From the NCBI RefSeq assembly GCF_056712565.1, contig NZ_CM160072.1: DNA of 64,000 bases. One strand, 5' to 3'. Both the position numbers and the translations under genes were made by a program. Shown piece after piece: positions 10,623 to 55,744 of the stretch. The stretch's first letter is position 1. Every line of letters begins with the position of its first letter. Under the pieces are notes generated by a model. That model was not told the origin of the DNA, ran no database searches, and saw only the letters and a list, made by a program, of their open reading frames with translations.

Positions 10623-13367
10623 ATGGAGAACATGACCTCGCCCGGCACGCTGCTTAGTGGAGATAACGCGACCTGGCTTGAAGAGTACTACCAGACCTGG
10701 TTGCGTACGCCGGAACAACTCCCGGAAGACTGGCGGCGTTTTTTTCTTTCACCTGAACTGACTGTCCAAAGCGTATCCGGTGATAACAACGTCAGCGGTG
10801 CGACGTTAAAAAAACAGGCTGCGGTAATACAACTGATCAATGCCTGGCGCACGCAGGGGCATCTGCGCGCAAAGCTTGATCCACTTGGTTTGAATCCCCC
10901 AGCTGACGTTCCCTCCCTCCAGCCTGGTTTTTGGGGATTAAGCGAAGAAGACTTGTTGCAGGAGTTTAGCGTCACCTTTGGCGCACACACCACGCAAATG
11001 CCACTTAAGCAACTGCTTAACCTGCTGGAGCAAGCCTGGGCCGGTAGCCAGGCTTATGAACTTGCTCATCTGGAAAATCGTGAAGAAATCAACTGGTTGT
11101 TATCACGGATTGAGAGCAGCAATGCGCCACAAGCTGATGCCCAAACCTGCATTGCCCGTTTTGAAAAACTGATGGCGGCAGAGACGTTAGAGCGTTATCT
11201 GCATACCCGTTATGTTGGGCAGAAACGGTTTTCTCTGGAAGGGGGCGAAAGTGCAATCCCGGCGCTCGATACGCTGACAAAACGCCTGCGTGCGCAAGGT
11301 GTGGAGGAAATGGTCATTGGCATGGCGCACCGGGGAAGACTTAATGTTCTGGTTAATCTGTTGAATAAAGACCCGGCACAGCTTTTTGCTGAGTTTGAAG
11401 GCAAGCAGACGATCGGCAGTGGTTCAGGCGATGTGAAATACCACATGGGGTATTCCAGCAATCTGGAAACACCTGCCGGTTCGCTGCATGTGGCGCTGGC
11501 GTATAACCCCTCACATCTGGAGATCGTGAATCCGGTGGTGCTGGGCCAGGTGCGAGCCAGGCAGGAACGCCGTGGTGAGGATGGTCAGGCAAAAGTGGTG
11601 GGCGTACTTATTCATGGGGATTCCGCGTTGGGCGGCCTCGGCGTCAACCAAACCACGTTTAACTTATCGCAGACTCAGGGCTACGGCACTGGCGGTACGC
11701 TACATCTGGTGATTAACAATCAGATTGGCTTCACCACTTCCCGCTTGCAGGATATGCGTTCTTCACGGTACTGCACCGATATTGCCAAAATGGTAGCGGC
11801 CCCAATTATCCACGTTAATGGCGATGACGTTGACGCTGTTTGCCAGGTAATGGAACTGGCGTGCGAATGGCGAGACACCTTCCGGCGCGACATCATCATC
11901 GATATTTGCTGCTTCCGTAAGCACGGACACAACGAAAGCGATGAGCCACGTCTTACCCAGCCACAAATGTATCAGGCAGTGGATGCTCACCCTGGTACGC
12001 TCGCCCGTTATGGTGAATCTCTTGCCCGCCGCGGCCTGTTAACTCAGGCGCAACAAGATGAGATGACGGCACGCTATCGCGACTGGCTGGATAGCTGCCA
12101 GAAACGTGAACCGCAGCCTCTCAAACCTGCAATTCACTCTTTTAGCGCTAACTGGTATGGGTTGACCAACCCTCACTGGAGCGCCCCGGTATCTACGGCA
12201 TTGCCTCGGCAAAAGCTGGCAGCGTATGGTGAAATCATTTCTACACTGCCACCCGATGTGGTCGCACATCCTACCATTAAACGGCAACTGGCGTTACGCC
12301 AGGATATGGCCGCAGGTACTCAGCCAATAGACTGGGGAATGGCTGAAATGCTGGCCTATGCATCGCTTGTGGATGCGGGTGTTGGTGTGCGTCTTTCTGG
12401 TGAAGACTCAGGGCGTGGCACGTTCAGTCATCGCCATGCAGTGGTACATCATCAAACTGAAGCCCGTCGTTATCTGCCGTTACAGCATATCCGCGCTGGT
12501 CAGGCATCTTTCGATGTTTATGATTCGGTGCTTAATGAAGAAGCGCTCTTAGCCTTTGAATATGGCTATTCAACGTCTGCGCCTCAGCAACTGGTTATTT
12601 GGGAAGCGCAGTTTGGTGACTTTGCCAACGGCGCTCAGGTTGCTATTGACCAGTTTATCTCGTCTGGCGAAACCAAGTGGGATCGCTATAGCGGTTTAAC
12701 CATTCTTCTGCCGCATGGCTATGACGGACAAGGGCCGGAGCACTCTTCTGCGCGTCCTGAGCGCTGGCTGCAACTGTGCGCAGAAAACAACATGCAGGTG
12801 GTGATGCCCAGTGAGTCAGCACAAATGTTCCATTTGCTGCGCGGTCAGGCATTACGCCCAATGCGCAAACCGTTAGTGATAATGATGAGTAAGCGTTTAC
12901 TTCGGTTTAAAGGCGCTATGAGCGAGCTTTCTGAATTCACTGATGGCGCTTATAAACCGGTAGTCACCGATCCGCAATTGCATCAGTCCCAGAAAGTTAA
13001 GCGCGTTATTTTGTGTAGCGGCCAGGTCTATTACGACGTACTGGAAGCCCGTAAGCAGCGTGAGTGTGAAGATGAGGTAGCGATTGTTCGCCTGGAGCAA
13101 CTCTACCCGTTCCCGGTCGCAGAACTGAATGATGTTCTGGCGAGTTGGCCGAACTGCTGCGAATGGATTTGGTTGCAGGAAGAGCCAGAAAACCAGGGCG
13201 CGTGGCGGCAGATTCGTCATGAGCTGGCGGCACTGAAAATTAACACTCCTTACTGGCAGTATGCAGGCCGCCCGGCAGTGGCAGCTCCGGCGACAGGGTA
13301 TGGGCGTGTACATAAACAACAAATCGACGAATTTCTTGCTGCTGCGTTTGCAGATATTCAGCCATGA
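10623..13367 (+). CDS. 2-oxoglutarate dehydrogenase E1 component paralog (SucA-like)
   Basis: ORF-track ORF 10548-13367 (TTG) trimmed to ATG 10623 with AGGAGA SD; ThDP region HGDSALGGLGVNQTTFNLSQTQGYGTGGTLHLVINNQIGFTTS parallels SucA. Confidence 0.9.
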   Translation: MENMTSPGTLLSGDNATWLEEYYQTWLRTPEQLPEDWRRFFLSPELTVQSVSGDNNVSGATLKKQAAVIQLINAWRTQGHLRAKLDPLGLNPPADVPSLQPGFWGLSEEDLLQEFSVTFGAHTTQMPLKQLLNLLEQAWAGSQAYELAHLENREEINWLLSRIESSNAPQADAQTCIARFEKLMAAETLERYLHTRYVGQKRFSLEGGESAIPALDTLTKRLRAQGVEEMVIGMAHRGRLNVLVNLLNKDPAQLFAEFEGKQTIGSGSGDVKYHMGYSSNLETPAGSLHVALAYNPSHLEIVNPVVLGQVRARQERRGEDGQAKVVGVLIHGDSALGGLGVNQTTFNLSQTQGYGTGGTLHLVINNQIGFTTSRLQDMRSSRYCTDIAKMVAAPIIHVNGDDVDAVCQVMELACEWRDTFRRDIIIDICCFRKHGHNESDEPRLTQPQMYQAVDAHPGTLARYGESLARRGLLTQAQQDEMTARYRDWLDSCQKREPQPLKPAIHSFSANWYGLTNPHWSAPVSTALPRQKLAAYGEIISTLPPDVVAHPTIKRQLALRQDMAAGTQPIDWGMAEMLAYASLVDAGVGVRLSGEDSGRGTFSHRHAVVHHQTEARRYLPLQHIRAGQASFDVYDSVLNEEALLAFEYGYSTSAPQQLVIWEAQFGDFANGAQVAIDQFISSGETKWDRYSGLTILLPHGYDGQGPEHSSARPERWLQLCAENNMQVVMPSESAQMFHLLRGQALRPMRKPLVIMMSKRLLRFKGAMSELSEFTDGAYKPVVTDPQLHQSQKVKRVILCSGQVYYDVLEARKQRECEDEVAIVRLEQLYPFPVAELNDVLASWPNCCEWIWLQEEPENQGAWRQIRHELAALKINTPYWQYAGRPAVAAPATGYGRVHKQQIDEFLAAAFADIQP

Positions 13368-13399
13368 AAGGCGCACAAAAATAATAAGGAGAACATTTT

Positions 13400-14554
13400 A
13401 TGATCGAAATTACTGTCCCTGTATTACCGGAATCTGTCACGGAAGGCACGCTGACAACCTGGTGTAAACAAGAAGGCGAGCACGTAAAACGCGATGATGT
13501 GATTGCCGAGCTGGAAACCGATAAAGTCATTCTGGAAATACCGGCCCCGCACGATGGCGTGTTAAGCAATATTATCGTCAGCGAAGGTAGCACGGTCACG
13601 TCCGCGCAACTGTTGGCGCATCTTAAGCCGCAAGCTGTCATAGAAGAAACCGTCACACCAGTCACCGAAACCCTGGCGATGCCTTCCGCACGGCTGGAGG
13701 CACAGCGTAGTGGTGTTGAACTTGCTGACGTTGCGGGGAGCGGGAGAAATGGACGTATCCTGAAAGAGGATGTACAGCGCGTTACTCCTGCACCAGTCAT
13801 TCAGCCTGAACGGGTGGCGGAGATCGCGCCAGCTAAACCCTTGACACCGGGTGCTCGTCAGGAACGTCGTGAGCCGATGTCGCGCTTACGTCAGCGAATT
13901 GCTGAGCGTCTGCTGGCTTCCCAACAAAATAACGCCATTCTTACCACATTCAACGAAGTAAACATGCAGAGCGTGATGGATTTACGCACCCGCTGGAAAG
14001 ATCGTTTTGCCGAGAAGCACGGCGTGAAGCTGGGCTTTATGTCCTTCTTTGTTAAGGCCGTTACCCGGGCGCTGGAGCGCTTCCCTGTAGTGAATGCCAG
14101 CGTTGATGGCAACGAGATTATCTGGCGTGATTATTGCGATATCGGCATTGCAGTGAGCAGCAACCGCGGCCTGGTAGTGCCTGTGTTACGCAATGCGCAA
14201 TCACTCTCTTTGGTGGAAATTGAACGGCAAATTGCCGAATACGCCACACAGGCACGCAATGGCAAATTGCCGCTGGAGGCGTTACAGGGCGGCACGTTCT
14301 CTATCACCAACGGCGGTACTTTTGGTTCGATGATGTCAACGCCAATCATTAACCCGCCGCAGTCGGCCATTCTTGGGATGCATGCCATCACGCCGCGCCC
14401 GGTCGCAGAAAACGGCCAGGTTGTTATTCGTCCCATGATGTACCTTGCTCTCAGCTATGACCATCGCATTATCGATGGTCAGGAAGCCGTGCAGACATTG
14501 GTGGCAATACGTGAGCTACTGGAATCACCGGAACAACTGTTGCTGGATCTTTAA
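13400..14554 (+). CDS. dihydrolipoyllysine-residue succinyltransferase E2 paralog (SucB-like)
   Basis: 384 aa; lipoyl-lysine motif [14 protein letters not shown]; catalytic [11 protein letters not shown]; AAGGAGA SD. Confidence 0.9.
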
Positions 14555-14565
14555 GGAGGGCGCCG

Positions 14566-15984
14566 ATGAGTACAATTTTTGATGTGGCAGTTATGGGGGG
14601 TGGGCCAGGTGGTTACGTAGCGGCACTGCGGGCTGCGCAGAATGGGCTTTCCGTAGTATGTATTGATGATGGTGTTAATGCACAGGGCGAACCTTCGCCG
14701 GGCGGTACGTGTCTCAATGTCGGCTGTATTCCGTCAAAATCGTTGCTGCAATCTTCCGAGCTGTACGCGCAAGTACAGCATGAGGCAAGCATTCATGGCG
14801 TTAACGTTGAAGGCGTATCTTTCAATGCTGCCGCGATGATTCAACGTAAAGATGCCATAGTAAGCCGCCTGACAATGGGCATCAGCTTGCTGTTTAAGAA
14901 AAATAAAGTGAAGCACTTGTGCGGCCTCGCAACGTTAGAACGTGCTCAGGATGAGATTTGGCAATTACGCGTAAACGATCAACACATTCACGCCCGTAAT
15001 GTAGTGATTGCAACAGGTTCTCAGCCGCGTCAGCTGCCTGGCGTTACCATTGATAATCAACAGATCCTCGACAATCGTGGCGCCCTGGCATTGAGCGAAG
15101 TGCCGCCGCGTCTCGGTGTGATCGGCGCTGGCGTGATTGGCCTTGAACTGGGGTCTGTGTGGAATCGGGTCGGTTCAGATGTCACGCTGCTGGAGATGGC
15201 GCCAACGTTCTTGCCTGCACTGGAAGCTCGCCTGTCGAACGAAGTCCGTAAAGCAATGATTGCCAGTGGGATGAAAATGCAACTGGCAGTAGAGATTGAG
15301 GCTATTGAACAACGGGATGACGGTGTGCATGTGCGCTGGCGGCAGGGTGAGAAGCGAGAAGAAAGCCGCTTCGATAAATTAATTCTTGCCATTGGACGTG
15401 TACCGCGACTTTCTGGTGTCGATCTCGTGCAACTCGGTCTTGAAGCCGATAACCGTGGCGGTATTGCCGTCGATAACTTATGCCGTACCGGGAAAGCCGG
15501 GCTGTGGGCAATTGGTGATGTCGTGCGAGGGCCGATGCTGGCGCATAAAGCGATGGCTGAAGGTGTGGTGGTTGCGGATCAAATTGCCGGACTGGCGGTA
15601 GAGCCGATTAATTTTGCGCTGATCCCTTCGGTGATTTACACCCAACCGGAAGTTGCGTGGGTAGGGGAAAACGAGGCCTCACTGAAAGCCGCTGGCAGAG
15701 TCTTTAACAAAGGAAATTCTCTGTTTGCCGGTAACGGTCGCGCCTTAGCATTAGGCCAGGAAGGTGGGCGTTGCACGTTATACAGCGATAAACACACTGA
15801 CCGCGTACTTGGCGGAGCGATTGTTGGCCCGCAGGCATCGGAGCTGATCAATGAAATTGCGCTGGCGATGACTTTTAGCGCCTCTGGCGAGGATATTGCC
15901 TGTGCGATCCATGCGCATCCGACCTTAAGCGAAGTCATCCACGAAGCAGCAATGGCCTTGAATAATAAAGCATTACACGGATAA
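14566..15984 (+). CDS. dihydrolipoyl dehydrogenase E3 paralog (Lpd-like)
   Basis: 472 aa; FAD fold GGGPGGYVAALRAAQ; redox-active disulfide CLNVGCIPSK. Confidence 0.9.
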   Translation: MSTIFDVAVMGGGPGGYVAALRAAQNGLSVVCIDDGVNAQGEPSPGGTCLNVGCIPSKSLLQSSELYAQVQHEASIHGVNVEGVSFNAAAMIQRKDAIVSRLTMGISLLFKKNKVKHLCGLATLERAQDEIWQLRVNDQHIHARNVVIATGSQPRQLPGVTIDNQQILDNRGALALSEVPPRLGVIGAGVIGLELGSVWNRVGSDVTLLEMAPTFLPALEARLSNEVRKAMIASGMKMQLAVEIEAIEQRDDGVHVRWRQGEKREESRFDKLILAIGRVPRLSGVDLVQLGLEADNRGGIAVDNLCRTGKAGLWAIGDVVRGPMLAHKAMAEGVVVADQIAGLAVEPINFALIPSVIYTQPEVAWVGENEASLKAAGRVFNKGNSLFAGNGRALALGQEGGRCTLYSDKHTDRVLGGAIVGPQASELINEIALAMTFSASGEDIACAIHAHPTLSEVIHEAAMALNNKALHG

Positions 15985-16005
15985 CACATACCACTGAGGG
16001 AATAT

Positions 16006-17175
16006 ATGAATTTACATGAGTATCAGGCCAAATCGTTACTGGCTGGCATGGGGATGCCGTGTCCAAAAGAGATAGCCATCCAACAGATTTCGCAACTGGC
16101 AGATGCCTGGCAACATATTGCTTGCCCGAGTAAAGGCGCGGTACTTAAAGCGCAGGTACATGCTGGTGGGCGCGGTAAAGCTGGCGGCGTAAAAGTGCTT
16201 AAGCAGCTGCCGGAAGCACAGGCTTTTGTACAGCAAATGTTGGGATCGCAACTGGTGACTTATCAGACCGGGCCAGAAGGGCAGTATGTCAGCAGTATTT
16301 TGCTGTGCGAAAACATCTATCCGGTACGCCAGGAACTCTATTTTGGCATGGTGGTGGATCGTGAAAGCCAGCGGGTCACGTTTATTGTCAGCCCGGAAGG
16401 TGGTGTGGAAATTGAAAAAGTCGCCCATGAGACACCGGAGAAAATCAGCAGTGTCAGCATTGATCCACTGACAGGCGTGCAGCCTTGCCATATCCGCGAA
16501 ATGTTTGCTGTTCTGCAACTGGAACACGGGCTATTTGCTACCTTTAGTCGCCTGGTTAATCAGGCGTGGAAAGCCTTTAACGAACTGGATTTCGCCCTGC
16601 TGGAAATTAACCCTCTGGTGTTGCGGGAAACGGGCGAATTTATGTGTGCAGACGCGAAAGTATCGCTGGATGATAACGCGCTGTATCGTCACCCGGAACT
16701 CCAGGTGCTACGTGATGAAACCCAGGAAGATCCACGCGAAAGCCAGGCAGCGAAGCTTGATCTTAATTATGTCTCGCTGGACGGAAATATCGGCTGCATG
16801 GTCAATGGTGCAGGGCTGGCTATGGCAACCATGGACATCATCAAGCTATACGGTGAACAACCCGCAAACTTCCTGGATGTTGGCGGTGGCGCAACCCAGG
16901 AGCGCGTCAGTGAAGCCTTTCGGCTGATTGTTTCCGACAGCAAAGTGAAAGCCATTCTGGTTAATATTTTTGGTGGGATTGTCCGTTGCGACATGATCGC
17001 CAGAGCCATTATTCATGCTCTGAATGAGGCCCGTATCACCCTGCCTGTCGTGGTGCGTCTCTCCGGTAATAACGCTGCCGAAGGGCAGCGGTTACTGGCA
17101 GAAAGTGGCCTGACGGTGGAAGCCGTCAATTCTCTGGATGATGCCGCTAAACGCATCATTGCGTTACTGAATTAA
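16006..17175 (+). CDS. succinyl-CoA synthetase beta subunit paralog (SucC-like)
   Basis: 389 aa; N-terminus MNLHEYQAKSLLAGMGMP typical of the ATP-grasp SucC family. Confidence 0.9.
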   Translation: MNLHEYQAKSLLAGMGMPCPKEIAIQQISQLADAWQHIACPSKGAVLKAQVHAGGRGKAGGVKVLKQLPEAQAFVQQMLGSQLVTYQTGPEGQYVSSILLCENIYPVRQELYFGMVVDRESQRVTFIVSPEGGVEIEKVAHETPEKISSVSIDPLTGVQPCHIREMFAVLQLEHGLFATFSRLVNQAWKAFNELDFALLEINPLVLRETGEFMCADAKVSLDDNALYRHPELQVLRDETQEDPRESQAAKLDLNYVSLDGNIGCMVNGAGLAMATMDIIKLYGEQPANFLDVGGGATQERVSEAFRLIVSDSKVKAILVNIFGGIVRCDMIARAIIHALNEARITLPVVVRLSGNNAAEGQRLLAESGLTVEAVNSLDDAAKRIIALLN

Positions 17176-17187
17176 CAGGAGGTTAAG

Positions 17188-18060
17188 ATGAGCGTTTTGA
17201 TCAACAAACACACGCGGGTACTGGTGCAGGGCATTACCGGCAAAAACGGCACATTTCATACAGAGCAGGCTATTGCGTATGGCACGCAGATTGTGGGTGG
17301 AGTGACGCCAGGTAAGGGCGGGCAACGGCATCTGGATCGCCCGGTTTTTGATTCAATGAAAGAAGCGATGCGACAAACTGAGGCTGATGCCAGCGTGATT
17401 TATGTGCCTGCACCGTTTGTGCTGGATTCTGTTGTTGAGGCTATTGAAGCTGGCGTCAAATTGGTTGTGGTGATCACTGAAGGTGTACCGACACTGGATA
17501 TGGTGAAAGTTCGTCGGCTGCTTGACTGCCACCCGGATGTGCGGCTGATTGGGCCAAACTGCCCAGGAGTTATCACGCCGGGCGAGTGCAAAATCGGGAT
17601 TATGCCTGGTGAAATCCACCGCCCAGGGCGTATTGGGATTGTTTCCCGCTCCGGTACATTAACCTACGAAGCTGTAGCGCAAACCACGGCGCTGGGACTT
17701 GGGCAATCCACCTGTATTGGTATTGGCGGCGATCCGGTTCCGGGGACTAACTTTATTGATGCGCTGCGTTTATTCGAAAATGATCCGCAAACAGACGCGG
17801 TAATTATGATCGGTGAAATTGGTGGTAATGCGGAAGAACGGGCTGCGGAATTTATTCGTCATGAAATGAATAAACCGGTCGTAGGTTATATTGCCGGTGT
17901 TACTGCACCAAAAGGAAAACGCATGGGGCACGCCGGAGCCATTATTTCTGGCGGTAGCGGCAGTGCAGAGGATAAATTCCGTGCGTTCGATAAAGCAGGC
18001 ATGGCATGGACAAGAAACCCGGCGTTGCTTGGCGAAACGTTATGGAATGTTATTAAGTAA
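17188..18060 (+). CDS. succinyl-CoA synthetase alpha subunit paralog (SucD-like)
   Basis: 290 aa; CoA-binding N-terminus [14 protein letters not shown]; phosphohistidine region [17 protein letters not shown]. Confidence 0.9.
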
Positions 18061-18078
18061 TCCATAAATGAATATCAA

Positions 18079-18102
18079 GGGAGCATATCGCTCCCTTTTT
18101 TT
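18079..18102 (+). terminator. rho-independent terminator ending the dehydrogenase/synthetase operon
   Basis: GGGAGC-ATATC-GCTCCC followed by an 8-T run, 19 nt after the sucD-like stop. Confidence 0.65.
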
Positions 18103-18215
18103 ATCTGTGTGGTAAGGGAATCATCTTTTAATAACTGTGCGGAAAACCGCGCATAAAATAAAAAGGATAAATAGCTAACTCATTAAATAACAAAGCGTTA
18201 TTAAAAAATTAAAGA

Positions 18216-18231
18216 TGGCATAGCTCCTGCA
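18216..18231 (+). promoter_or_regulatory. candidate sigma-54 (-24/-12) promoter for the transporter / Ldh_2 operon
   Basis: TGGCATAGCTCCTGCA: GG-N10-GC, close to consensus; about 40 nt upstream of ATG 18272. Confidence 0.6.
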
Positions 18232-18271
18232 ATAGCCAGGCAGGTTTTTTATTTTTCACAATGAGGTGAAT

Positions 18272-19771
18272 ATGTCATCAATATCCCATGGCGCACCACA
18301 AAAGCGTCGAATTATCCCTAATCCCGGCCTGTGGTTGGCGATCATTGCCGGAATTATTATTACCCTTCTGCCACTGGGCGATACCTTGCCCGTCGCCGGA
18401 CAAAATATGATCGCCATTCTGGTGTTTGCCATTATTGTCTGGATCAGCGAAGCGATGGATTACACCGCCAGTGCAATTGTTATTTCCGCACTGATTATCT
18501 TTATGGTTGGTTTTGCCCCGGATATGAATCACCCGGACACGATCCTTGGCACCGCGAAAGCGCTGAAAATGACTCTGTCGGGTTTTTCTAATTCTGCTCT
18601 GGCGCTGGTGGCAGCAGCAATGTTTATCGCGGCGGCAATGACCATTACCGGGCTGGATAAACGCATTGCGCTGTTTACTATGTCGAAAATAGGTGCCAGC
18701 AGCCGCAGCATTATTATCGGTGCCATTGTGGTGACCATCGTCCTGAGCCTGGTTGTACCCAGTGCCACTGCCCGTACGGCTTGCGTGGTGCCGATTATGA
18801 TGGGGGTCATTGCGGCATTTAAGGTGGATAAACATTCACGTTTAGCGGCGTCAATGATGATTGTTATCGCCCAGGCGACCAGTATCTGGAACGTTGGTAT
18901 TCAAACTTCGGCGGCGCAAAACCTGCTTTCTATCGGTTTTATCAATAAAACTTTCGGCGCCGGGCATTCTGTCAGCTGGCTTGACTGGCTGTTAGCGGGC
19001 GCGCCCTGGAGCCTCACCATGTCGGTGATCCTCTATTTCCTCGCACGTAAATTGTTGCCGCCAGAAACGGAAGCTGTTGAAGGGGGGAGCGAGGCCATTA
19101 AAAAAGCACTCGCAGAGTTAGGGCCAACCACCGGTAAAGAAAAACGCTTGATCGGTATTTCGCTATTGTTACTGCTCTTTTGGTCTACTGGCGGAAAATT
19201 ACACAGTATTGATACCACCTCTGTCACCCTTGCCGGACTGGCGATTATGTTGCTGCCAGGCATCGGTGTAATGAGCTGGAAAGAGGTCGAAAAACGTGTG
19301 CAGTGGGGCACGTTGCTGATGTTTGGTATTGGTATCAGCCTGGGGTCCACGCTGCTTGATACGCAGGCAGCTTCATGGATGGCGAACTATGTGGTGAAAG
19401 GTTTTGGTCTTGATGGCTTGCCATCATTAGCCATCTTCGCGATTCTCGCCGCTTTCTTGATAATTATTCACCTGGGGTTTGCCAGTGCCACTGCGCTAAC
19501 TGCCGCATTGCTGCCCATCCTGATTAGCCTGTTAAGCAGTCTGCCGCCAGAACTCGGCGTTAACCCGGTCGGCATGACCATTCTGCTCGCCTTCAGTGTC
19601 AGTTTTGGCTTCATCCTGCCGATTAACGCGCCACAAAATATGGTGTGTATGGGTACGGATACCTTCACGCCACGCCAGTTTACCCGTGTGGGACTGTACC
19701 TGACGGTAATCGGCTACCTGTTGTTGCTACTGTTTGCCGCCACCTGGTGGAAAATTTTAGGTCTAATGTGA
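18272..19771 (+). CDS. anion permease (DASS/CitT-like ion-transporter superfamily), probable 2-oxoglutarate/dicarboxylate uptake
   Basis: ORF-track ORF 18266-19771 (GTG) trimmed to ATG 18272; polytopic hydrophobic 499-aa protein; island context. Confidence 0.75.
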   Translation: MSSISHGAPQKRRIIPNPGLWLAIIAGIIITLLPLGDTLPVAGQNMIAILVFAIIVWISEAMDYTASAIVISALIIFMVGFAPDMNHPDTILGTAKALKMTLSGFSNSALALVAAAMFIAAAMTITGLDKRIALFTMSKIGASSRSIIIGAIVVTIVLSLVVPSATARTACVVPIMMGVIAAFKVDKHSRLAASMMIVIAQATSIWNVGIQTSAAQNLLSIGFINKTFGAGHSVSWLDWLLAGAPWSLTMSVILYFLARKLLPPETEAVEGGSEAIKKALAELGPTTGKEKRLIGISLLLLLFWSTGGKLHSIDTTSVTLAGLAIMLLPGIGVMSWKEVEKRVQWGTLLMFGIGISLGSTLLDTQAASWMANYVVKGFGLDGLPSLAIFAILAAFLIIIHLGFASATALTAALLPILISLLSSLPPELGVNPVGMTILLAFSVSFGFILPINAPQNMVCMGTDTFTPRQFTRVGLYLTVIGYLLLLLFAATWWKILGLM

Positions 19772-19782
19772 GGAAACCAACG

Positions 19783-20856
19783 ATGTCATTACAAATTGCT
19801 GTTGAAAAAGTGCGTTGGTTAGCTGCCGGGCTGCTGGAACTTAATGGCTGTGATGCCGATATCGCTCAGGATGTGGCGGAACATATGATTGAAGCGGAAC
19901 GTTATGGCTTTGCCAGCCACGGCGTCACGCTGCTACCGAAATATCTGGAAAATATCGCTCGTGGCGATGTAACCGCGAATGCCCGCCCGGAATGCTTAAC
20001 AAGTGAAGGTAATTTACAACGTTTTCATGCCCACAATGGCTTTGGTCAACACGCCGGAAAAGTGGCGGTAAATGCTGCCATCGAACAAGCAAAACACCGC
20101 GGTTTTTGCCTGTTAACGTTGTGCCATGCGCATCATTTAGGGCGTATGGGGCATTACGGGCAAATGGTTGCTGATCAAGGCCTGGCGATGCTGGCCATGA
20201 GTAACGTCACCGGGCGTCCGGCACTGGTCGCCCCGTGGGGCGGTGCGGAACCGCGTATGACCACTAACCCTTTCTGCTTTGCCTGGCCGTTCAGTGATGG
20301 GCGTCCGCCGATTCTGGTTGATTTTGCCACCAGTAGCATGGCGCTAAATAAAGCACGGGTAATGTCGTCCACCGGGAAGCAGGCCGCGCCGGGACAATTG
20401 ATCGATGCACAGGGGAATCCAAGCAATGATCCTGGGGTGTTATTCAGCAATCCTCCAGGGGCGTTACTGCCATTTGGTGAGCATAAAGGATTTGGCCTGG
20501 CACTGATGATTGAAATGATGGCGGGGATCTTATCTGGTGGTGACACGATCGCCGAAGATCATCAGACGGATGGATCTGCGCATAATCATCTTTTTGCGTT
20601 GATTATCGATCCTGATCAATTCACCGATCTGGCAGGGGAGAAAGGGCAGTTCTTTGCGGATTATCTGTTAGCTACGCAGCCTCAACCTGGCGGCAATCCG
20701 GTGATTTACCCCGGTATGCCAGAAGCTGCCAACCGGGAACGCAATGCGAAGATGATTACGATCCCGGTATCATTCTGGTCCTGGATAGTTGAACATTACG
20801 CCCGCAAAGGTATCGATTTGGGGTTACATCCTCAGGAATCAGCATTAGCTGGATGA
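19783..20856 (+). CDS. Ldh_2-family (malate/L-lactate dehydrogenase 2 type) 2-hydroxyacid/2-oxoacid oxidoreductase
   Basis: ORF-track ORF 19645-20856 trimmed to ATG 19783 (GAGGAAA SD; the upstream extension would overlap the transporter gene); 357 aa. Confidence 0.7.
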   Translation: MSLQIAVEKVRWLAAGLLELNGCDADIAQDVAEHMIEAERYGFASHGVTLLPKYLENIARGDVTANARPECLTSEGNLQRFHAHNGFGQHAGKVAVNAAIEQAKHRGFCLLTLCHAHHLGRMGHYGQMVADQGLAMLAMSNVTGRPALVAPWGGAEPRMTTNPFCFAWPFSDGRPPILVDFATSSMALNKARVMSSTGKQAAPGQLIDAQGNPSNDPGVLFSNPPGALLPFGEHKGFGLALMIEMMAGILSGGDTIAEDHQTDGSAHNHLFALIIDPDQFTDLAGEKGQFFADYLLATQPQPGGNPVIYPGMPEAANRERNAKMITIPVSFWSWIVEHYARKGIDLGLHPQESALAG

Positions 20857-22203
20857 TTCTGGTCGATAAACTTGCGGTTGAATCTGATGTTTGTTGAGTT
20901 TGTCATATAAAGTCTTGCGCGGCAGCTGTAATAGCCGCGCTGTCAAACTGACTTGGCCTTCCGTTTGTCGCAGCATATCTTCGATTAACTTTTTCTCGAA
21001 AGCATCAATGCAGGCGGTAAGGCCACTCTCTTCTTGCTGAGTCATTGGCACTGGCTGGTGGTGGGTCAGTAAACCGAGAACAAAACGCTCTGCATTGTGT
21101 TTAAGTTCACGTACATTGCCAGGCCAACTTTGTGATTGCAACCAGGCCAGTAACATGGGAGAAATATCAGGCAGAGGACGATTATATTTTTGTGCCGCCT
21201 GACTGGCGAACCAGTAAAACAGTTCAGGGATATCTTCTCGTCGCTGGCGTAGAGGTGGAATATTCAAGCTAACCACATTCAGACGATAATAGAGATCGAG
21301 ACGAAACAGATGTTCTTCGCTGCGACGCAGTAAATCTTCCTTGGTCGCTGCAATAACACGGCAATTCACCGGAATTAATTGATTGGCACCTAATCGTTCA
21401 ATGGTTCTTTCCTGCAATACACGTAGCAGTTTTACCTGCATTCCTGATGGCATTCCCTCTATTTCATCGAGAAATAACGTACCACCATTTGCATGTTCAA
21501 TTTTTCCAATACGCTTTTTAACCGCACCGGTAAATGCGCCCGCCTCATGACCAAATATTTCGCTTTCAAACAACGTTTCTGGTAAGCCTGCACAGTTTAA
21601 GGCAACAAACTGCCCCTGACGGCGGGTACTCCAGTGATGCAGCATTCTGGCGACGACTTCTTTACCACAACCTGTTTCACCATAAATAAGGACATCGGCA
21701 CCGGTATCTGCGACATTAAGGATCATTTTACGCAGTTGTTGCATCTGCGGACTACGACCAATCAGCACCGGGCCATTTTCCTGTTGCAGATTCGCCAGTA
21801 ATTGCTGATTTTCTAAAACCAATCGCCGTTTTTCTACCGCTCTGGCAATAATACTCAATAATTTATCTGAGCTACTTGGTTTCTCAATGAAATCGAATGC
21901 ACCATTACGCATGGCATCCACCGCCATTTCCACGTCACCGTGTCCGGTAATTAAAATAACCGGAATTTTGCTATCCATTTCGTTGATGTAACTGAGGAGC
22001 TCTAGTCCTGATATTCCAGGTAACCTGACATCGGTCAGTATAATAATGTTGGCTTGACTTTGAATAAGGGGAATACTGTGTTCTGCATCGCAACAGGAAA
22101 TAACACGATAACCAGCCAGCGTGAGCGTTTGTTCACAGGCAAAACGTACATCGTCACTATCCTCAATATAAACTATAGTAATTTCACTGGATTTATTATT
22201 CAT
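20845..22203 (-). CDS. kguR: sigma-54-dependent response regulator (NtrC family); matches KguR of the alpha-ketoglutarate utilization island
   Basis: 452 aa; receiver domain (IILTDVRLPG); AAA+ Walker A GETGCGKE; GAFTGA motif; C-terminal HTH. Gene name recalled from the UPEC literature, not verified here. Confidence 0.85.
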   Translation of the reverse strand: MNNKSSEITIVYIEDSDDVRFACEQTLTLAGYRVISCCDAEHSIPLIQSQANIIILTDVRLPGISGLELLSYINEMDSKIPVILITGHGDVEMAVDAMRNGAFDFIEKPSSSDKLLSIIARAVEKRRLVLENQQLLANLQQENGPVLIGRSPQMQQLRKMILNVADTGADVLIYGETGCGKEVVARMLHHWSTRRQGQFVALNCAGLPETLFESEIFGHEAGAFTGAVKKRIGKIEHANGGTLFLDEIEGMPSGMQVKLLRVLQERTIERLGANQLIPVNCRVIAATKEDLLRRSEEHLFRLDLYYRLNVVSLNIPPLRQRREDIPELFYWFASQAAQKYNRPLPDISPMLLAWLQSQSWPGNVRELKHNAERFVLGLLTHHQPVPMTQQEESGLTACIDAFEKKLIEDMLRQTEGQVSLTARLLQLPRKTLYDKLNKHQIQPQVYRPESSS

Positions 22204-24016
22204 GTTCTTCTCCCCATTCAGGCCAGGTTAATGTCATTACTGCGCCGCCTTCAGGATGATTACTGGCGTGGAGTGCGCCGTTCGAATTTCGGACAATTTC
22301 GCTGACTATTGCCAGTCCCAACCCCATTCCTCTACGTTTAGTGGTAAAAAATGGTTCAAATATGCGATCGACAACTTCAGGTGCAAAACCGCCACCGCTG
22401 TCTTTAATGGTAATAATAACTTTGTTATTTGCCTGGCGAATGGCGATATCCAGTCGTTTGTAAGAGCTACCTTCCATAGAATCTAAGGCGTTGCTAATTA
22501 AATTACTGAATATCTGTTCAAGACCGAGCTCATCGCAATTGACAAATAACGGCATGGATGGGGCTTTTATTCGTCGCTCAATGTTATTTTTCTCCATGCT
22601 GTGATTAAGTAACGCCACGGCGCTATACATCACTTTGATGACATCGGCAGAACCTTTAGGTACGCGATGGCGCGAGGCAAATGCTTTAAGTTCGGAAATG
22701 AGCTGCGTCATCCGCTCAATCACTGAAATAATGTGTTTCAGATTCTGTTCAACCTGCGGATACATCTCTTTTTTTAGCATAGTACGCGCGTTATCAGTAA
22801 GTGCGTGAATGGCGGCTAACGGTTGATTTTGTTCATGGGCAATTTCGGTTGCCATCTGTCCAAGCGCCGCCAGTTTGCTGGACTCTGCCAGTTCACTACG
22901 CGTAATTTGTAATACTTGTTCAGCCTGACTGCGCTCTTTTATCTCCTGTATTAATTTTTGATTGATCAATTCCAGGGCAGATGTACGCTCTTTAACCTGT
23001 TTTTCTAATGTTTCATTCGCCAGTGTTAATAATTGTTGTGCATGAGATCGCATTCTCCAGTATTTAATAAATAACAAAAACAGCAGGTAAATAATTAGTG
23101 TAATGACTAACGAAATAGCCCATGACCAGTACAGGTTATCTAAGGGGACCATAATTGTCATTTTCCAGTTAAATTCTGGAATGGCTATTTGTTGCGTATA
23201 ATATTGCGGGAATAAACAGAGTTGTTCTTTTTTATCTTTCAGGAAAGTAAAATTGCTCACGGTATAACAGGGATAATAATCCGCCGGTAAAAGATTGTCG
23301 AGACTATATTGACGGGTAGATTGTAGTTTTTGTTTTGCCTGAACAGGTAACGGTTGCAGTGTTCGCATTCGCCATGGCGATTTTGAACTTAAAAATATAA
23401 TCCCATGTTCATCATTCACGATAATATTTTCAGGACCTTCGGCCCATGCTTTTTCAATTTCATTAAGACTTATTTTTACTACTACAACACCGACAATTTT
23501 TCCTTTATCTTTTATACTTGTAGAGAGGAAGAATCCCGGTGTATTTGTAGTGCTACCAATACCGTAAAAGCGTCCATTTAAGCCAGACATGGCGTGTTTA
23601 TAATAGGGGCGATAGCTATAATTTTGCCCTACATAGCTGCCGGGGTCCTGCCAGTTGCTAGAAGCGATGGCCTTACCTTGGGTATCCAGAATAAATATTG
23701 CTGCGGTTTTGAGTTGAGTATTGAAATGTGCAATTCGTTGATTGAGTTCGCTGGACGTCATATCGTCAGGCGTAATTACCGCCTGACGGATGATATGGTC
23801 TGTTGAGAGCATATAGGGTAAAACATAAAATTGCTCGATGGTGGAATATAATGTGGACTTATACATTTCAAGCCGCATTTTATCGGTACCGGACAAGGTA
23901 TTAAAACGCAAGTGCAAAAAAGCGATTGAAACCGCGAGCATGATAAGAAAAAGTGAAATGCTTGTAATGTGAAATCGCCATTTGTTCTTAAATATATAAT
24001 TCCACGATATTTTCAT
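22196..24016 (-). CDS. kguS: sensor histidine kinase (DctB-like, periplasmic sensing domain); matches KguS
   Basis: 606 aa; two TM segments flanking a roughly 270-aa periplasmic domain; H-box ATEIAHEQNQPLAAI; ATPase G-box DSGGGF; stop overlaps the kguR start by 8 nt. Confidence 0.85.
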   Translation of the reverse strand: MKISWNYIFKNKWRFHITSISLFLIMLAVSIAFLHLRFNTLSGTDKMRLEMYKSTLYSTIEQFYVLPYMLSTDHIIRQAVITPDDMTSSELNQRIAHFNTQLKTAAIFILDTQGKAIASSNWQDPGSYVGQNYSYRPYYKHAMSGLNGRFYGIGSTTNTPGFFLSTSIKDKGKIVGVVVVKISLNEIEKAWAEGPENIIVNDEHGIIFLSSKSPWRMRTLQPLPVQAKQKLQSTRQYSLDNLLPADYYPCYTVSNFTFLKDKKEQLCLFPQYYTQQIAIPEFNWKMTIMVPLDNLYWSWAISLVITLIIYLLFLLFIKYWRMRSHAQQLLTLANETLEKQVKERTSALELINQKLIQEIKERSQAEQVLQITRSELAESSKLAALGQMATEIAHEQNQPLAAIHALTDNARTMLKKEMYPQVEQNLKHIISVIERMTQLISELKAFASRHRVPKGSADVIKVMYSAVALLNHSMEKNNIERRIKAPSMPLFVNCDELGLEQIFSNLISNALDSMEGSSYKRLDIAIRQANNKVIITIKDSGGGFAPEVVDRIFEPFFTTKRRGMGLGLAIVSEIVRNSNGALHASNHPEGGAVMTLTWPEWGEEHE

Positions 24017-31937: not shown

Positions 31938-32261
31938 CTACAGGCGGTGGCGATAATCGCTGGGAGTGCGATCAAACTGCCGACGGAAAACGCGGGAGAA
32001 GGTCTGCTGAGAGACATAACCCAGGTCCATTGCGATATCAAAAATCGGACGCTCGGTGGTGCGCAACTCAACGGCGGCCAGTAACAGACGGCGCTGGCGA
32101 ATGTAATCGCCAAGCGTCTGATGCGTCACCGTGCGGAACATCCGTTGCAAGTACCACTTTGAATAGCCAGATTTTTTTGCGACGACATCAATGTTAAGCG
32201 GCTGGTCAATATGCTCGTCAATCCATGCGATAAGATCCTGAATAATTTTCTGATGGGACAT
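31938..32261 (-). CDS. soxS: superoxide-response AraC-family activator SoxS
   Basis: 107 aa; MSHQKIIQDLIAWIDEHIDQPL... Confidence 0.95.
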   Translation of the reverse strand: MSHQKIIQDLIAWIDEHIDQPLNIDVVAKKSGYSKWYLQRMFRTVTHQTLGDYIRQRRLLLAAVELRTTERPIFDIAMDLGYVSQQTFSRVFRRQFDRTPSDYRHRL

Positions 32262-32317
32262 AAATCTGCCTCTTTTCAGTGTTCAGTTCGTTAATTCATC
32301 TGTTGGGGAGTATAATT

Positions 32318-32335
32318 CCTCAAGTTAACTTGAGG
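32318..32335. promoter_or_regulatory. SoxR-binding palindrome in the soxS promoter
   Basis: Perfect 18-bp palindrome CCTCAAGTTAACTTGAGG between divergent soxS and soxR. Confidence 0.85.
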
Positions 32336-32346
32336 TAAAGCGATTT

Positions 32347-32811
32347 ATGGAAAAGAAATTACCCCGCATTAAAGCGCTGCTAACCCCCGGCGAAGTGGCG
32401 AAACGCAGCGGTGTGGCGGTATCGGCGCTGCATTTCTATGAAAGCAAAGGGTTGATTACCAGTATCCGTAATAGCGGCAATCAGCGGCGATATAAACGTG
32501 ATGTGTTGCGATATGTCGCAATTATCAAAATTGCTCAGCGTATTGGCATTCCGCTCGCAACCATTCGTGAAGCGTTTGGCGTGTTGCCAGAAGGGCATAC
32601 GTTAAGTGCGAAAGAGTGGAAACAGCTTTCGTCCCAATGGCGAGAAGAGTTGGATCGGCGCATTCATACCTTAGTGGCGCTGCGTGACGAACTGGATGGA
32701 TGTATTGGTTGTGGCTGCCTTTCGCGCAGTGATTGCCCGTTGCGTAACCCGGGCGACCGATTAGGAGAAGAAGGTACCGGCGCACGCTTACTGGAAGATG
32801 AACAAAACTAA
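32347..32811 (+). CDS. soxR: redox-sensing MerR-family regulator SoxR
   Basis: 154 aa; [24 protein letters not shown]; [2Fe-2S] cysteine cluster [12 protein letters not shown]. Confidence 0.95.
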
Positions 32812-32840
32812 AGCGCCACAAGGGCGCTTTAGTTTGTTTT
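32810..32840 (+). terminator. soxR terminator stem-loop
   Basis: AAAGCGCC-ACAAG-GGCGCTTT followed by AGTTTGTTTT. Confidence 0.55.
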
Positions 32841-32955
32841 CCGGTCTTTGTCTTTCTCTCTATCCCGCTGGTACACAGGAGGGTTTCCCCCGACGTCAAC
32901 ACACCTCATTCGAGCACGTGGTGGAGGTTCCGGTTGGTGTTGATGCTTTAATTGT
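32815..32955 (-). ncRNA. ryjA: possible RyjA small RNA (position by synteny only)
   Basis: In K-12 a roughly 140-nt sRNA lies convergent to soxR just downstream of it; boundaries here are approximate and not supported by any motif I can read. Confidence 0.25.
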
Positions 32956-36542: not shown

Positions 36543-37427
36543 TTACTCTGGCGTTAACCAGTATCCTTCACAACAGCTCAGCCACGCGTGGGCAGAGTGG
36601 GAAAGGTAAACGCCCTCACGCCAAATCATTCCTAATTTCCAGCTTAGTTCGCTTTCCAGCGGTAGCCATTTTAAGGTGTTTTTATCTAATCGCTGGCAAA
36701 TGGGTTCCGGCAATATGGCTATTCCGACACCGGCCTGAACCATCGCGGCGAGAAAATCCCATTGCCCGCTGCGAACTGCAATTCTCGGCTTAACGCCATG
36801 TTCATCGAATAACTTCATCAATTGCTTACTTAAGGCAAAATCTTCGTTATAGATAAGTAGAGGATGTTCCGCCAATGTCTCCGGTGAGACGGCATCACAT
36901 TCAAGCCATTTACCTGAATGTGGCGTCAGTACACATAGTGGATGACTAAACAGCGATAACGTTGTCAGGCCGCTTTCTTCTACTGGCAGGGCTGTCAGTG
37001 CCATATCCAGTTCACCGTTCATCACCGCTTGTTGTACCGTCAGACCACCAAACTCCGAAATTTTCAATTCTACGCCGGGGTAACGCTGGCGAAAAAGGCC
37101 AATCGGCCCGGCCATCAACATCCCAACCATCGGCGGGATTCCCAGCCGCAAAACGCCGGTTTTAAGCTGATTGATATCGCTAAGCTCAGCTTCCAGTTGC
37201 CGAAACTCAGCCAGTAAAGCCAGCCCGCGCTCAAATACGACGCGACCAGTATCAGTGAGAAGCAGCCGACGACCATCGCGGATCAACAATATACAGTTCA
37301 GCTCATCTTCGAGATTCTTCAGCATCTTGCTGATAGTTGGTTGGGTGACAAACAACTTCTCCGCTGCGCGGGTGAAGCTTTGCTGGCGCACGACTTCGAC
37401 AAAATAACGCAGCGTTCTGATATCCAT
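36543..37427 (-). CDS. LysR-type transcriptional regulator, divergent from the LrgA/LrgB-like pair
   Basis: 294 aa; N-terminal wHTH IRTLRYFVEVVRQQSFTRAAEKLFVTQPTISKMLKNLE; LTTR co-inducer domain. Confidence 0.85.
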   Translation of the reverse strand: MDIRTLRYFVEVVRQQSFTRAAEKLFVTQPTISKMLKNLEDELNCILLIRDGRRLLLTDTGRVVFERGLALLAEFRQLEAELSDINQLKTGVLRLGIPPMVGMLMAGPIGLFRQRYPGVELKISEFGGLTVQQAVMNGELDMALTALPVEESGLTTLSLFSHPLCVLTPHSGKWLECDAVSPETLAEHPLLIYNEDFALSKQLMKLFDEHGVKPRIAVRSGQWDFLAAMVQAGVGIAILPEPICQRLDKNTLKWLPLESELSWKLGMIWREGVYLSHSAHAWLSCCEGYWLTPE

Positions 37428-37530
37428 AACTATTCCCTTTGACTATACCTGCAATGATTTTAATTCATTTCAGTCAGGGGCGAGCGCTCTCTATACTTAC
37501 CATTCTGTTTTATTTTCAGGATATCCTCTC

Positions 37531-37941
37531 ATGCCCGTGGCGCTTCGCCGCATTACCCCTGCCGTAGTGCAATCTATCCAGGTATTTTTTCAGGTTGTGC
37601 TGTATGCAGGTTTATTTATTTTTGCGCAGTATCTCGTCTCCTGGCTGCATTTGCCGCTGCCTGCCAACCTGGTGGGGATGATCCTGATGCTGGCGCTGAT
37701 TGTTTGTCGCATTCTTCCTCTGCAATGGGTTCGAGCCGGGGCGCGTTGGCTATTGGCCGAAATGTTGCTGTTTTTTGTCCCTGCCGTGGTGGCTGTGGTG
37801 AACTATGCACAACTATTACTGGTGGATGGCTGGCGTATTTTTGCTGTGATCGCGCTGAGTACGGTGATGGTGCTGGGCACGACTGCCTGGGTAGTGGAAA
37901 AAGTCTATCGCTATGAAATGCGCAGGTTAAACCGTGGCTAA
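37531..37941 (+). CDS. CidA/LrgA-family small membrane protein (YohJ-like)
   Basis: 136 aa; four predicted TM helices; paired with the downstream LrgB-family gene. Confidence 0.8.
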   Translation: MPVALRRITPAVVQSIQVFFQVVLYAGLFIFAQYLVSWLHLPLPANLVGMILMLALIVCRILPLQWVRAGARWLLAEMLLFFVPAVVAVVNYAQLLLVDGWRIFAVIALSTVMVLGTTAWVVEKVYRYEMRRLNRG

Positions 37942-38623
37942 TTTTCAGCTAAGTATGCTCTGTCTGGCAATTACGCTAGTTATCTATTTTCTTAACAAAC
38001 GCCTTTATCGCCGCTTTCGTAAATTGCCATTGATGCCTCTGGTGCTGACGCCTACGCTACTGGTTATGCTGCTGGTTTTTGGCAATATTTCCTGGCAAAA
38101 CTATATTGGCGAAGCGCACGGGTTACTATGGCTATTAGGTCCGGCCACCATCGCCTTTGCGGTACCAGTGTATGACAATCGGGCGATCATTAAGCGTCAC
38201 TGGATGTCGTTGACGGCAGGCGTACTGACGGCAACGGTGGTGGCAGTGACCAGCTCAGTGTGGCTGGCGCGATTGTTTACCCTGCCAGATGAGATCCAGC
38301 GTAGCCTGGCGGTGCGTTCGGTCACTACGCCATTTGCTTTGGCAGCGAGCCAGTCGCTCGGCGGACAGCCTGATCTGGTGGCGCTGTTTGTGGTGGTCAC
38401 CGGTGTGTTTGGCATGGCGATTGGCGACGTGTTGTTTTTACGTCTCTCTATTCGCGAAGGGATGGCGAAAGGTGCTGGATTCGGCGCGGCATCTCATGGT
38501 GCCGGGACTGCGCGGTCATATGAACTGGGTCAACAAGAAGGCGTAGTTGCAAGCCTGGTCATGATGCTTTCAGGTGTATTGATGGTATTGGTTTCGCCGC
38601 TGGTGGCCAGGATGATGTTCTGA
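37934..38623 (+). CDS. CidB/LrgB-family membrane protein (YohK-like)
   Basis: 229 aa from GTG 37934 (alternative ATG at 37955); aligns with E. coli YohK as I recall it (GTASHALGTARCAELDYQEG vs GAASHGAGTARSYELGQQEG); overlaps the LrgA-like stop by 8 nt. Confidence 0.8.
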   Translation: MANFQLSMLCLAITLVIYFLNKRLYRRFRKLPLMPLVLTPTLLVMLLVFGNISWQNYIGEAHGLLWLLGPATIAFAVPVYDNRAIIKRHWMSLTAGVLTATVVAVTSSVWLARLFTLPDEIQRSLAVRSVTTPFALAASQSLGGQPDLVALFVVVTGVFGMAIGDVLFLRLSIREGMAKGAGFGAASHGAGTARSYELGQQEGVVASLVMMLSGVLMVLVSPLVARMMF

Positions 38624-40699: not shown

Positions 40700-40905
40700 C
40701 CTTGCCGAATGTAGGCCGGATAAGGCGTTATACGCCGCATCCGGCAATCAATGCCTGATGCGACGCTGTCGCGTCTTATCAGGCCTACAGCCGTTGCCGA
40801 ATGTAGGCCGGATAAGGCGTTCACGCCGCATCCGGCAACCAGCGCCTGATGCGCCGCTGTCGCGTCTTATCAGGCCTACAAACCGTTACCGACTCGCATC
40901 CGGCA
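40700..40905. repeat. REP/BIME cluster: two tandem roughly 90-bp units of palindromic REP sequences between yjcH and acs
   Basis: Two near-identical units each containing GCCGGATAAGGCGTT...ACGCCGCATCCGGCA and TGCGACGCTGTCGCGTCTTATCAGGCCTAC palindromic cores. Confidence 0.85.
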
Positions 40906-52242: not shown

Positions 52243-52947
52243 TTAATCCATCCGATGTTCCCCCTTTTCCATGGCGTCGCGATCAAAAAATCGCTGAATT
52301 TTTCCCTCGGACATCAATGCCGCTCGATCAGACATATGCGCGATGACATCGGCATCGTGACTGACCAGCAGATATGTCATTTGGTGTTCCAGCTTAAGTT
52401 GATTCAACAAATTAAGGATTTCCGCTTGTACCGACATATCCAACGCCGAGGTGGGTTCATCCAGCAGAAGAAGTTGTGGTCGTAACAACAGGGCGCGAGC
52501 AATAACCACACGTTGCCGTTGACCACCGGAAAGCTGGTGTGGGTAGCGACGAGCGGCGTCGAAAGGCAAGCCAACCTGTTCCAGTGCAGTCTGGACGCGT
52601 TTTTCTATTTCTCTTTCGCCACGAATTTTGAGTGGTTCAGCCAGCGTTCGCCACAGAGTATGATTGGGATGCAACGAGGCATAGGGATCCTGAAACACCA
52701 TTTGCACATTGCGGCGGAGATCGCCTTGAAAACGCATTCCTGGTTTGATGGTGTGCCCAAACAGTGACACCTGACCGTGCCAGTCGCGCTGTAATCCAGC
52801 AATTACGCGCAAAATCGTGGATTTTCCGCAGCTTGATTCGCCAATTAAACTAAATGTCTCTCCGGCATTAACCGAAAAACTGGCGGCAGAAACTGCGGTT
52901 TTCTCAGCAAAAGTCACCTGTAAGTGATTAATTTCAACAATCGTCAT
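52243..52947 (-). CDS. ABC transporter ATP-binding protein (short, NikE-type)
   Basis: 234 aa; Walker A GESSCGKST; signature LSGGQRQR; Walker B LLLLDEPTSALD; no C-terminal oligopeptide-transporter extension. Confidence 0.85.
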   Translation of the reverse strand: MTIVEINHLQVTFAEKTAVSAASFSVNAGETFSLIGESSCGKSTILRVIAGLQRDWHGQVSLFGHTIKPGMRFQGDLRRNVQMVFQDPYASLHPNHTLWRTLAEPLKIRGEREIEKRVQTALEQVGLPFDAARRYPHQLSGGQRQRVVIARALLLRPQLLLLDEPTSALDMSVQAEILNLLNQLKLEHQMTYLLVSHDADVIAHMSDRAALMSEGKIQRFFDRDAMEKGEHRMD

Positions 52948-53770
52948 GGTATTTCTCCGGCGTCATTGCCGTCCTGTCCAGCGTCGGCAGCATCTGCCCG
53001 TAAGTTTGTGCATTTGGGCGGCAAGTCCACAGTGTGCGCGTGTAAGGATGCGTTGCTGTAGGTAGCGCAGCAGCGTGCATTTCATCCACCTTATTTCCCT
53101 GATACATCACCAGCACCCGATGGCAAAATTGGGCAACTAATGGCAGGTCGTGACTGATCAGCAACATTGCCATCTGACGTTGTTCACACTGGGTAACCAG
53201 CAGTTCCAGAATCTGATTACGCAGGCGCACATCCAGTGCTGATGTTGGCTCATCGGCAATCAATACCCGGGGATCGTTGATGAGCGCAATTGCAATCATC
53301 ACTCGCTGCCCCATGCCGCCAGAAAGTTCACGAGGATAGCTTTGCAGTACTCGCGTATTGAGGCCGACAGCCTGAATTGCGGTGTTTATTTTCTCTTCTT
53401 TCTCGCGGCGGTTCAGACGTTGATGGAGCGTAAGCGCCTCTTCCAGTTGCGCTTTTACTGTCTTTACTGGATTAAGCGCGTAACGCGGATCTTGCAATAC
53501 CATCGCGATATCGTTACCGCGCAACTGTTGCCATCCACGCGCGTTAAGGGTGAGTGCATCACGCCCCAGAATGTTAAGTGTGTCCGCGGTTACTACACCC
53601 GGTTTACGCACCAGCCCCATCAGGGCGCGGGCGGTCATGGACTTACCTGAACCCGACTCACCGACCAGCGCCAGACGTTCATTGCCTAATGTAAAACTGA
53701 CATTGTTGACGACCCGGGACTCCGGATAATCGACGCAGAGATTGTTGATACTAAGACGTGAGTCAGTCAT
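52934..53770 (-). CDS. ABC transporter ATP-binding protein (short, NikD-type)
   Basis: ORF-track ORF 52934-53830 (TTG) trimmed to ATG at 53770 (MTDSRLSINNLCVDY...); Walker A GESGSGKS; signature LSGGMGQR. Confidence 0.8.
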   Translation of the reverse strand: MTDSRLSINNLCVDYPESRVVNNVSFTLGNERLALVGESGSGKSMTARALMGLVRKPGVVTADTLNILGRDALTLNARGWQQLRGNDIAMVLQDPRYALNPVKTVKAQLEEALTLHQRLNRREKEEKINTAIQAVGLNTRVLQSYPRELSGGMGQRVMIAIALINDPRVLIADEPTSALDVRLRNQILELLVTQCEQRQMAMLLISHDLPLVAQFCHRVLVMYQGNKVDEMHAAALPTATHPYTRTLWTCRPNAQTYGQMLPTLDRTAMTPEKYHDDC

Positions 53771-55645: not shown

Positions 55646-55691
55646 GATCTTTCCATACAGTGATAAATCAGCGGCTGGCCTGCAATACAGG

Positions 55692-55725
55692 CCAGCCCTG
55701 GTACCGCGCCCGGTAACAGGGCTGG
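55692..55725 (-). other. intra-operon stem-loop between the binding-protein gene and the first permease gene
   Basis: CCAGCCCTG-(16 nt)-CAGGGCTGG, 9-bp stem, read directly. Confidence 0.5.
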
Positions 55726-55744
55726 ACGCGAGTTGCATACAGGG

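Follow-up and report, generated by a model that had tools for sequence, protein, structure and literature searches.

The perfect 18-bp palindrome CCTCAAGTTAACTTGAGG, located at 32318..32335 (strand-neutral) of the window (the whole stretch of DNA analysed, 64,000 bases), was identified as the SoxR binding site (SoxR box) of the Escherichia coli soxS promoter, with a probability of about 97%. This assignment was based on identity to E. coli K-12, on PMC4411124, where the same 18 bases are given verbatim as the SoxR box of E. coli, and on invariance across genera, and no evidence against it was found. The initial annotation had named a SoxR operator at this place and had called it expected; the operator reading was borne out by the K-12 identity, the published sequence, and two flanking genes that passed the SoxR and SoxS equivalog models (see below), and the site was indeed an ordinary textbook SoxR box. 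It was already known in every respect and added nothing new on SoxRS; it mattered as a positive control only, through the literature match, a promoter spacer of 19 bp, and a conserved block that the -10 and -35 hexamers delimit.

The two arms of the palindrome (32318-32326 and 32327-32335) displayed 100% complementarity with 0 nt between them (9+9, repeat finder), and its centre GTTAAC formed an HpaI site. A pattern search of the window gave an 18/18 match to the E. coli SoxR box at 32318..32335, the chance expectation of this sequence with up to three mismatches being 0.01 per window. The box was placed in the 85-bp divergent intergenic region (32262..32346, strand-neutral) between the open reading frames of soxS (31938..32261, minus strand) and soxR (32347..32811, plus strand), and both the gapless symmetry and the length of the divergent region agreed with the earlier description.

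The symmetry itself had to be set against chance. When the 64-kb window was shuffled 100 times by a first-order Markov model, 22 of the shuffled sequences contained a perfect gapless palindrome of at least 18 bp, and the real window carried a longer one of 20 bp (59439..59458) inside fdhF, both of which would be in keeping with a functionless chance occurrence. Because about one-fifth of the shuffled sequences reached 18 bp, perfect palindromy alone was weak evidence for a SoxR box within 64 kb, and the argument was rested on location and conservation, which decided the assignment. As to location, the probability of finding a palindrome of at least 18 bp inside one given 85-bp gap was about 3e-4 (our own arithmetic, taking their frequency as about 0.25 per 64 kb), which argued against chance. 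The description of the box as one of the cleanest operator signatures of the window held in part: the palindrome in fdhF was longer, but the SoxR box was the only long perfect palindrome of the window that was placed in a divergent promoter region.

The core promoter elements around the box were read by hand from the sequence. On the minus strand, the box was placed between (i) the soxS -35 hexamer TTTACC (32334..32339), assigned by consensus, spacing, and conservation and invariant in four genera plus 12 further enteric loci, and (ii) the soxS -10 hexamer TATACT (32309..32314), assigned by consensus and invariant across genera. The two hexamers were separated by the 19-bp spacer TCAAGTTAACTTGAGGAAT (32315..32333, minus strand), which exceeded the optimal 17 bp by 2 bases; the box filled 16 of these 19 bases and shared its outer 2 bases (CC/GG) with the -35 hexamer. 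The soxS promoter was missed at this position by a generic sigma-70 scan, because that scan admitted spacers of 16-18 nt only and the 19-bp spacer exceeded this limit. Such an over-long spacer is a hallmark of MerR-family promoters (PMC8113463, PMC4411124): according to PMC8113463, regulators of this family activate suboptimal promoters with spacers of 19-20 bp.

On the plus strand, a perfect TATAAT (32311..32316), interleaved with the soxS -10 hexamer and invariant across genera, was taken as the putative soxR -10 element; no convincing -35 hexamer was found upstream of it (TTCGTT or TCGTTA stood in that place). A soxR start about 7 nt past this TATAAT would fall inside the box, which would fit auto-repression of soxR. 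PMC4411124 states that soxR and soxS of E. coli share promoter sequence and that a single SoxR site auto-represses soxR. The term operator was refined as too narrow, since the box is an activator site within the 19-bp soxS spacer and also the auto-repression operator for soxR. One further candidate feature of the region, the 8-bp inverted repeat CATAAATC/GATTTATG (32259..32266 and 32342..32349) through which the two genes share the same start-codon context, was rejected as probably a coincidence, since its soxS copy was not retained in Klebsiella, Citrobacter, or Salmonella.

The sequence comparison was also applied to E. coli K-12 MG1655 (NC_000913.3). The comparison with the K-12 soxS promoter that had been proposed as a check gave 151/151 identical bases over 32230..32380, a segment including the box, the promoter hexamers, and both start codons. 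The window and the K-12 soxSp/soxRp region (b4062-b4063) thus shared the box, TTTACC, the 19-bp spacer, TATACT, the start codons, and SoxS, but they differed in the regulator, which carried G74R in the window (see below), and in the host, a B2-type strain. The gene order of K-12 at the locus, namely, soxS (b4062), soxR (b4063), the sRNA gene ryjA, and ghxP, matched that of the window. The entire window was the reverse complement of 4431534..4495533 of E. coli ATCC 11775 (NZ_CP033092.2), with 2 mismatches over 64,000 bases.

Both flanking genes were recognized as the expected partners of the box. SoxS, a 107-aa AraC/XylS-type activator controlled through the box, was identical to K-12 SoxS at 107/107 positions and passed the NCBIfam equivalog model NF007584 (228 bits versus a cut-off of 174). 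SoxR, the 154-aa MerR-family [2Fe-2S] redox sensor that binds the box and whose gene started 12 bp from it, was identical to K-12 SoxR at 153/154 positions, passed the NCBIfam equivalog model TIGR01950 (248 bits versus a cut-off of 117), and matched the protein of PDB entries 2ZHG/2ZHH over its full length; the cluster ligands Cys119, Cys122, Cys124, and Cys130 were all kept in a CX2CXCX5C [2Fe-2S] motif. The models for CueR, ZntR, and MerR matched SoxR weakly, with scores far below their cut-offs. At the distal end of soxR, the sRNA sraL/RyjA (Rfam RF01408, 153 bits; ryjA in K-12) was found in antisense orientation at 32804..32944 (minus strand), overlapping the last soxR codons, and a 13-pair hairpin at 32805..32835 spanned the soxR stop codon and resembled a shared bidirectional terminator.

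Within E. coli, a 131-bp query spanning the intergenic region found a match in 5420 complete genomes, and in 5418 of them the match was at least 99% identical. A 1-kb query around the site matched 5425 of 5426 complete genomes, with 95-99% identity in most of them, and the features annotated under the 1-kb match were soxR, soxS, and pdeC. One of the 5426 genomes, E138 (NZ_AP022351.1; locus L003, 3572..4358), harbored an IS1 element in the soxS promoter. This IS1 was flanked by the 9-bp target duplication TAATTCCTC, equivalent to window positions 32313..32321, and parted the soxS -10 hexamer from the SoxR box and the -35 hexamer, which stayed beside soxR; judged from this arrangement, the insertion is predicted to uncouple soxS from SoxR control.

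Conservation across genera was assessed on loci of Klebsiella pneumoniae, Citrobacter freundii, and Salmonella that had been chosen by their overall similarity (about 79-82% over 1 kb) and not by the box. Aligned with E. coli, these loci displayed an invariant 35-bp block GAGTATAATTCCTCAAGTTAACTTGAGGTAAAGCG (32308..32342, strand-neutral) that ran from the soxS -10 hexamer through the -35 hexamer plus 3 bp, and the soxS-soxR intergenic region varied among the four genera outside this block. Invariance of the box amid diverging flanks and in the 5418 E. coli genomes, together with its identity to a characterised site (PMC4411124), refuted the chance palindrome, which was left with an almost vanishing probability.

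The palindrome might instead act mainly at the RNA level, as a hairpin in the soxR leader that controls translation or stability of transcripts starting upstream. The plus-strand RNA of 32300..32365 indeed folded so that the box formed a 7-bp stem with a 4-nt loop, ending 11 nt before the soxR AUG, and older work is said to have mapped some soxR starts farther upstream, within soxS. The fold was no better than those of shuffled sequences, however (z = -0.62), 57 of 200 shuffles folding at least as well, and with a soxR start about 7 nt after TATAAT the palindrome would be transcribed only in part. Moreover, the limits of the conserved block were set by the soxS -10 and -35 hexamers, a pattern that points to constraint on DNA rather than on RNA. 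Compensatory changes, by which the pairing of the stem might be tested, were not available in the invariant box. A hairpin as the primary role was rejected on account of the fold being not above shuffled sequences, and we consider it very unlikely.

A wider search returned to the SoxR box in bacteria at large. The pattern CCTCAAGNNNNCTTGAGG was scanned in the genomes of 100,044 species and gave at least 121 matches in at least 120 loci; this pattern was biased to the half-sites by construction, for which reason the loci picked by overall similarity (see above) served as a second test of how well the box is conserved. Among the 121 matches listed, 15 had a TTAA centre, and 12 of these 15 were enteric, coming from Citrobacter, E. 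albertii, Enterobacter, Superficieibacter, Rosenbergiella, Pantoea, and Klebsiella sp. In 11 of the 12 enteric loci listed, soxR was located 12-13 bp from the box (in the remaining one the alignment began later), with soxS on the opposite side; the arrangement AGTATAATT-box-TAAAG was invariant in 12/12 of them, and the flanks varied. At least about 17 further non-enteric loci from Alpha- and Gammaproteobacteria and Actinobacteria had a different box centre and carried a SoxR homologue alone within 75 bp. Those loci agree with the statement in PMC4411124 that non-enteric bacteria are without soxS and that SoxR there controls its targets directly.

These loci also bear on a third possibility, that the site serves mainly another DNA-binding protein or is a recombination or cruciform element, with SoxR incidental to it. 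No support for any of these was found. A SoxR homologue stood within 75 bp of the box in about 29 among the 121 matches listed, from diverse phyla, and SoxR has been crystallised in complex with soxS promoter DNA (PDB 2ZHG), both of which argue against another protein as the main ligand. As for recombination, the IS1 of E138 made its own 9-bp duplication and did not use the palindrome. The probability left to this reading was negligible, and the site was retained as a SoxR box.

Two observations from these searches concerned boxes outside the usual chromosomal setting. First, the exact sequence CCTCAAGTTAACTTGAGG was also present in three non-enteric genomes among the matches listed (L009, L060, and L082; Halocynthiibacter sp. 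and Nonomuraea spp.), where tblastn detected no SoxR or SoxS homologue in the locus DNA around it; these three boxes could have arisen by chance or could belong to targets of the SoxR regulon that lie far from soxR. Second, plasmid pPJT1-452kb of Salmonella sp. (NZ_OM317741.1, L129), a 452-kb record typed as a conjugative IncHI2A plasmid, carried the complete soxS-soxR locus, with the box intact and an EAL-domain gene alongside. Most of the other soxRS matches labelled as plasmid were chromosome-sized or non-mobilizable records of 0.3-5 Mb and were likely mislabelled.

The analysis itself established the sequence and placement of the site, the layout of the promoter, what the two flanking genes are, the identity to K-12, and the conservation; binding, redox switching, DNA distortion, and auto-repression were taken from the literature on the identical K-12 sequence. 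As given in PMC4411124, reduced SoxR represses and oxidised SoxR activates, the dyad lying between the -35 and -10 hexamers. PMC8063818 reports that oxidised and reduced SoxR have similar affinity for soxS promoter DNA and that activation is achieved by the oxidised form only. According to PMC4551924 (citing Watanabe 2008), the DNA in the crystallised complex with oxidised SoxR is bent and twisted, which reorients the -10 and -35 elements and shortens the spacing between them.

On this basis, the following mechanism would apply to the window. A SoxR homodimer would occupy the dyad, each half-site taking one winged-helix domain and each subunit carrying one [2Fe-2S] cluster, and it would remain permanently bound with its clusters either reduced or oxidised. 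Basal soxS transcription would be low because the box sits in an over-long spacer, whose 19 bp would put TTTACC and TATACT out of phase for RNA polymerase. Exposure to redox-cycling drugs or superoxide stress would lead to one-electron oxidation of the clusters and hence to an altered shape of SoxR. Nitrosylation of the [2Fe-2S] clusters by NO is an alternative trigger of SoxR. The altered SoxR would bend and untwist the DNA, shortening the effective distance between the -35 and -10 hexamers, and soxS would then be transcribed, after which SoxS would activate its regulon. The same bound dimer would cover the start of the divergent soxR promoter (putative TATAAT at 32311..32316), and soxR would be repressed in both redox states.

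Two kinds of known systems were compared with this arrangement. The mfsA-soxR region of Stenotrophomonas maltophilia (PMC4411124) likewise has a dyad box within the 19-bp spacer of a gene divergent from soxR, and its single site likewise activates the target and represses soxR; it differs in the box, CCTCAACTGCAGTTGAGG, which matches at 14 of 18 positions, and in the target, which is an MFS efflux pump there and the intermediary activator SoxS here. Other MerR-family systems, namely, MerR/merT, CueR/copA, BmrR/bmr, and EcmrR, share a dimer bound to a dyad in a 19-20 bp spacer and act by DNA distortion rather than recruitment, as set out in PMC8113463 and PMC4551924, but they differ in operator and in signal, which is the binding of a metal or drug in those systems and the oxidation of a [2Fe-2S] cluster in SoxR.

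The only difference from K-12 found at the locus was SoxR G74R (codon 74, about 32566..32568); Thr38 was unchanged. G74R is listed among "efflux regulator mutations" in the literature, and in PMC4317672 it is present in a fully levofloxacin-susceptible isolate (MIC 0.016) as well as in resistant isolates, and this occurrence on both sides makes a neutral lineage marker the simplest explanation. The substitution was accordingly interpreted most simply as a lineage polymorphism. It is unlikely that G74R, with the operator unchanged, alters basal soxS expression or the threshold at which soxS is induced and thereby changes drug tolerance linked to efflux.

Several further features were noted elsewhere in the window. 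Its longest perfect palindrome, the 20-bp CGTTATTGGTACCAATAACG (59439..59458), covered codons 126-133 of fdhF (57688..59835, minus strand) and was located some 20 nt to the 5' side of the selenocysteine codon UGA-140 and its SECIS element (Rfam SECIS_2, 59369..59423). It was identical in K-12 and may be a chance product; palindromes of at least 20 bp were present in 6 of 100 shuffles.

Four gene blocks were recognized from the annotation of the matching genome: (i) pnuC plus an AAA ATPase gene between alr and tyrB (about 7614..9166); (ii) a region between aphA and tyrB (about 10623..24016) encoding a sensor kinase, a sigma-54 regulator, an Ldh-family oxidoreductase, and a DASS symporter together with a second sucDC-lpdA-odhB-2-oxoglutarate dehydrogenase E1 cluster; (iii) LrgA/LrgB plus a LysR regulator between actP and yjcE (about 36543..38623); and (iv) a five-gene ABC transporter between fdhF and yjcO (about 52243..57313). 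Blocks (i), (iii), and (iv) are presumably not in K-12; block (ii), which we likewise take to be absent from K-12, resembles the KguS/KguR island for alpha-ketoglutarate utilisation in uropathogenic E. coli. Finally, two Rfam naRNA4 (REP-derived nucleoid-associated RNA) matches were found at 40714..40785 and 40806..40876, between acs and yjcH.
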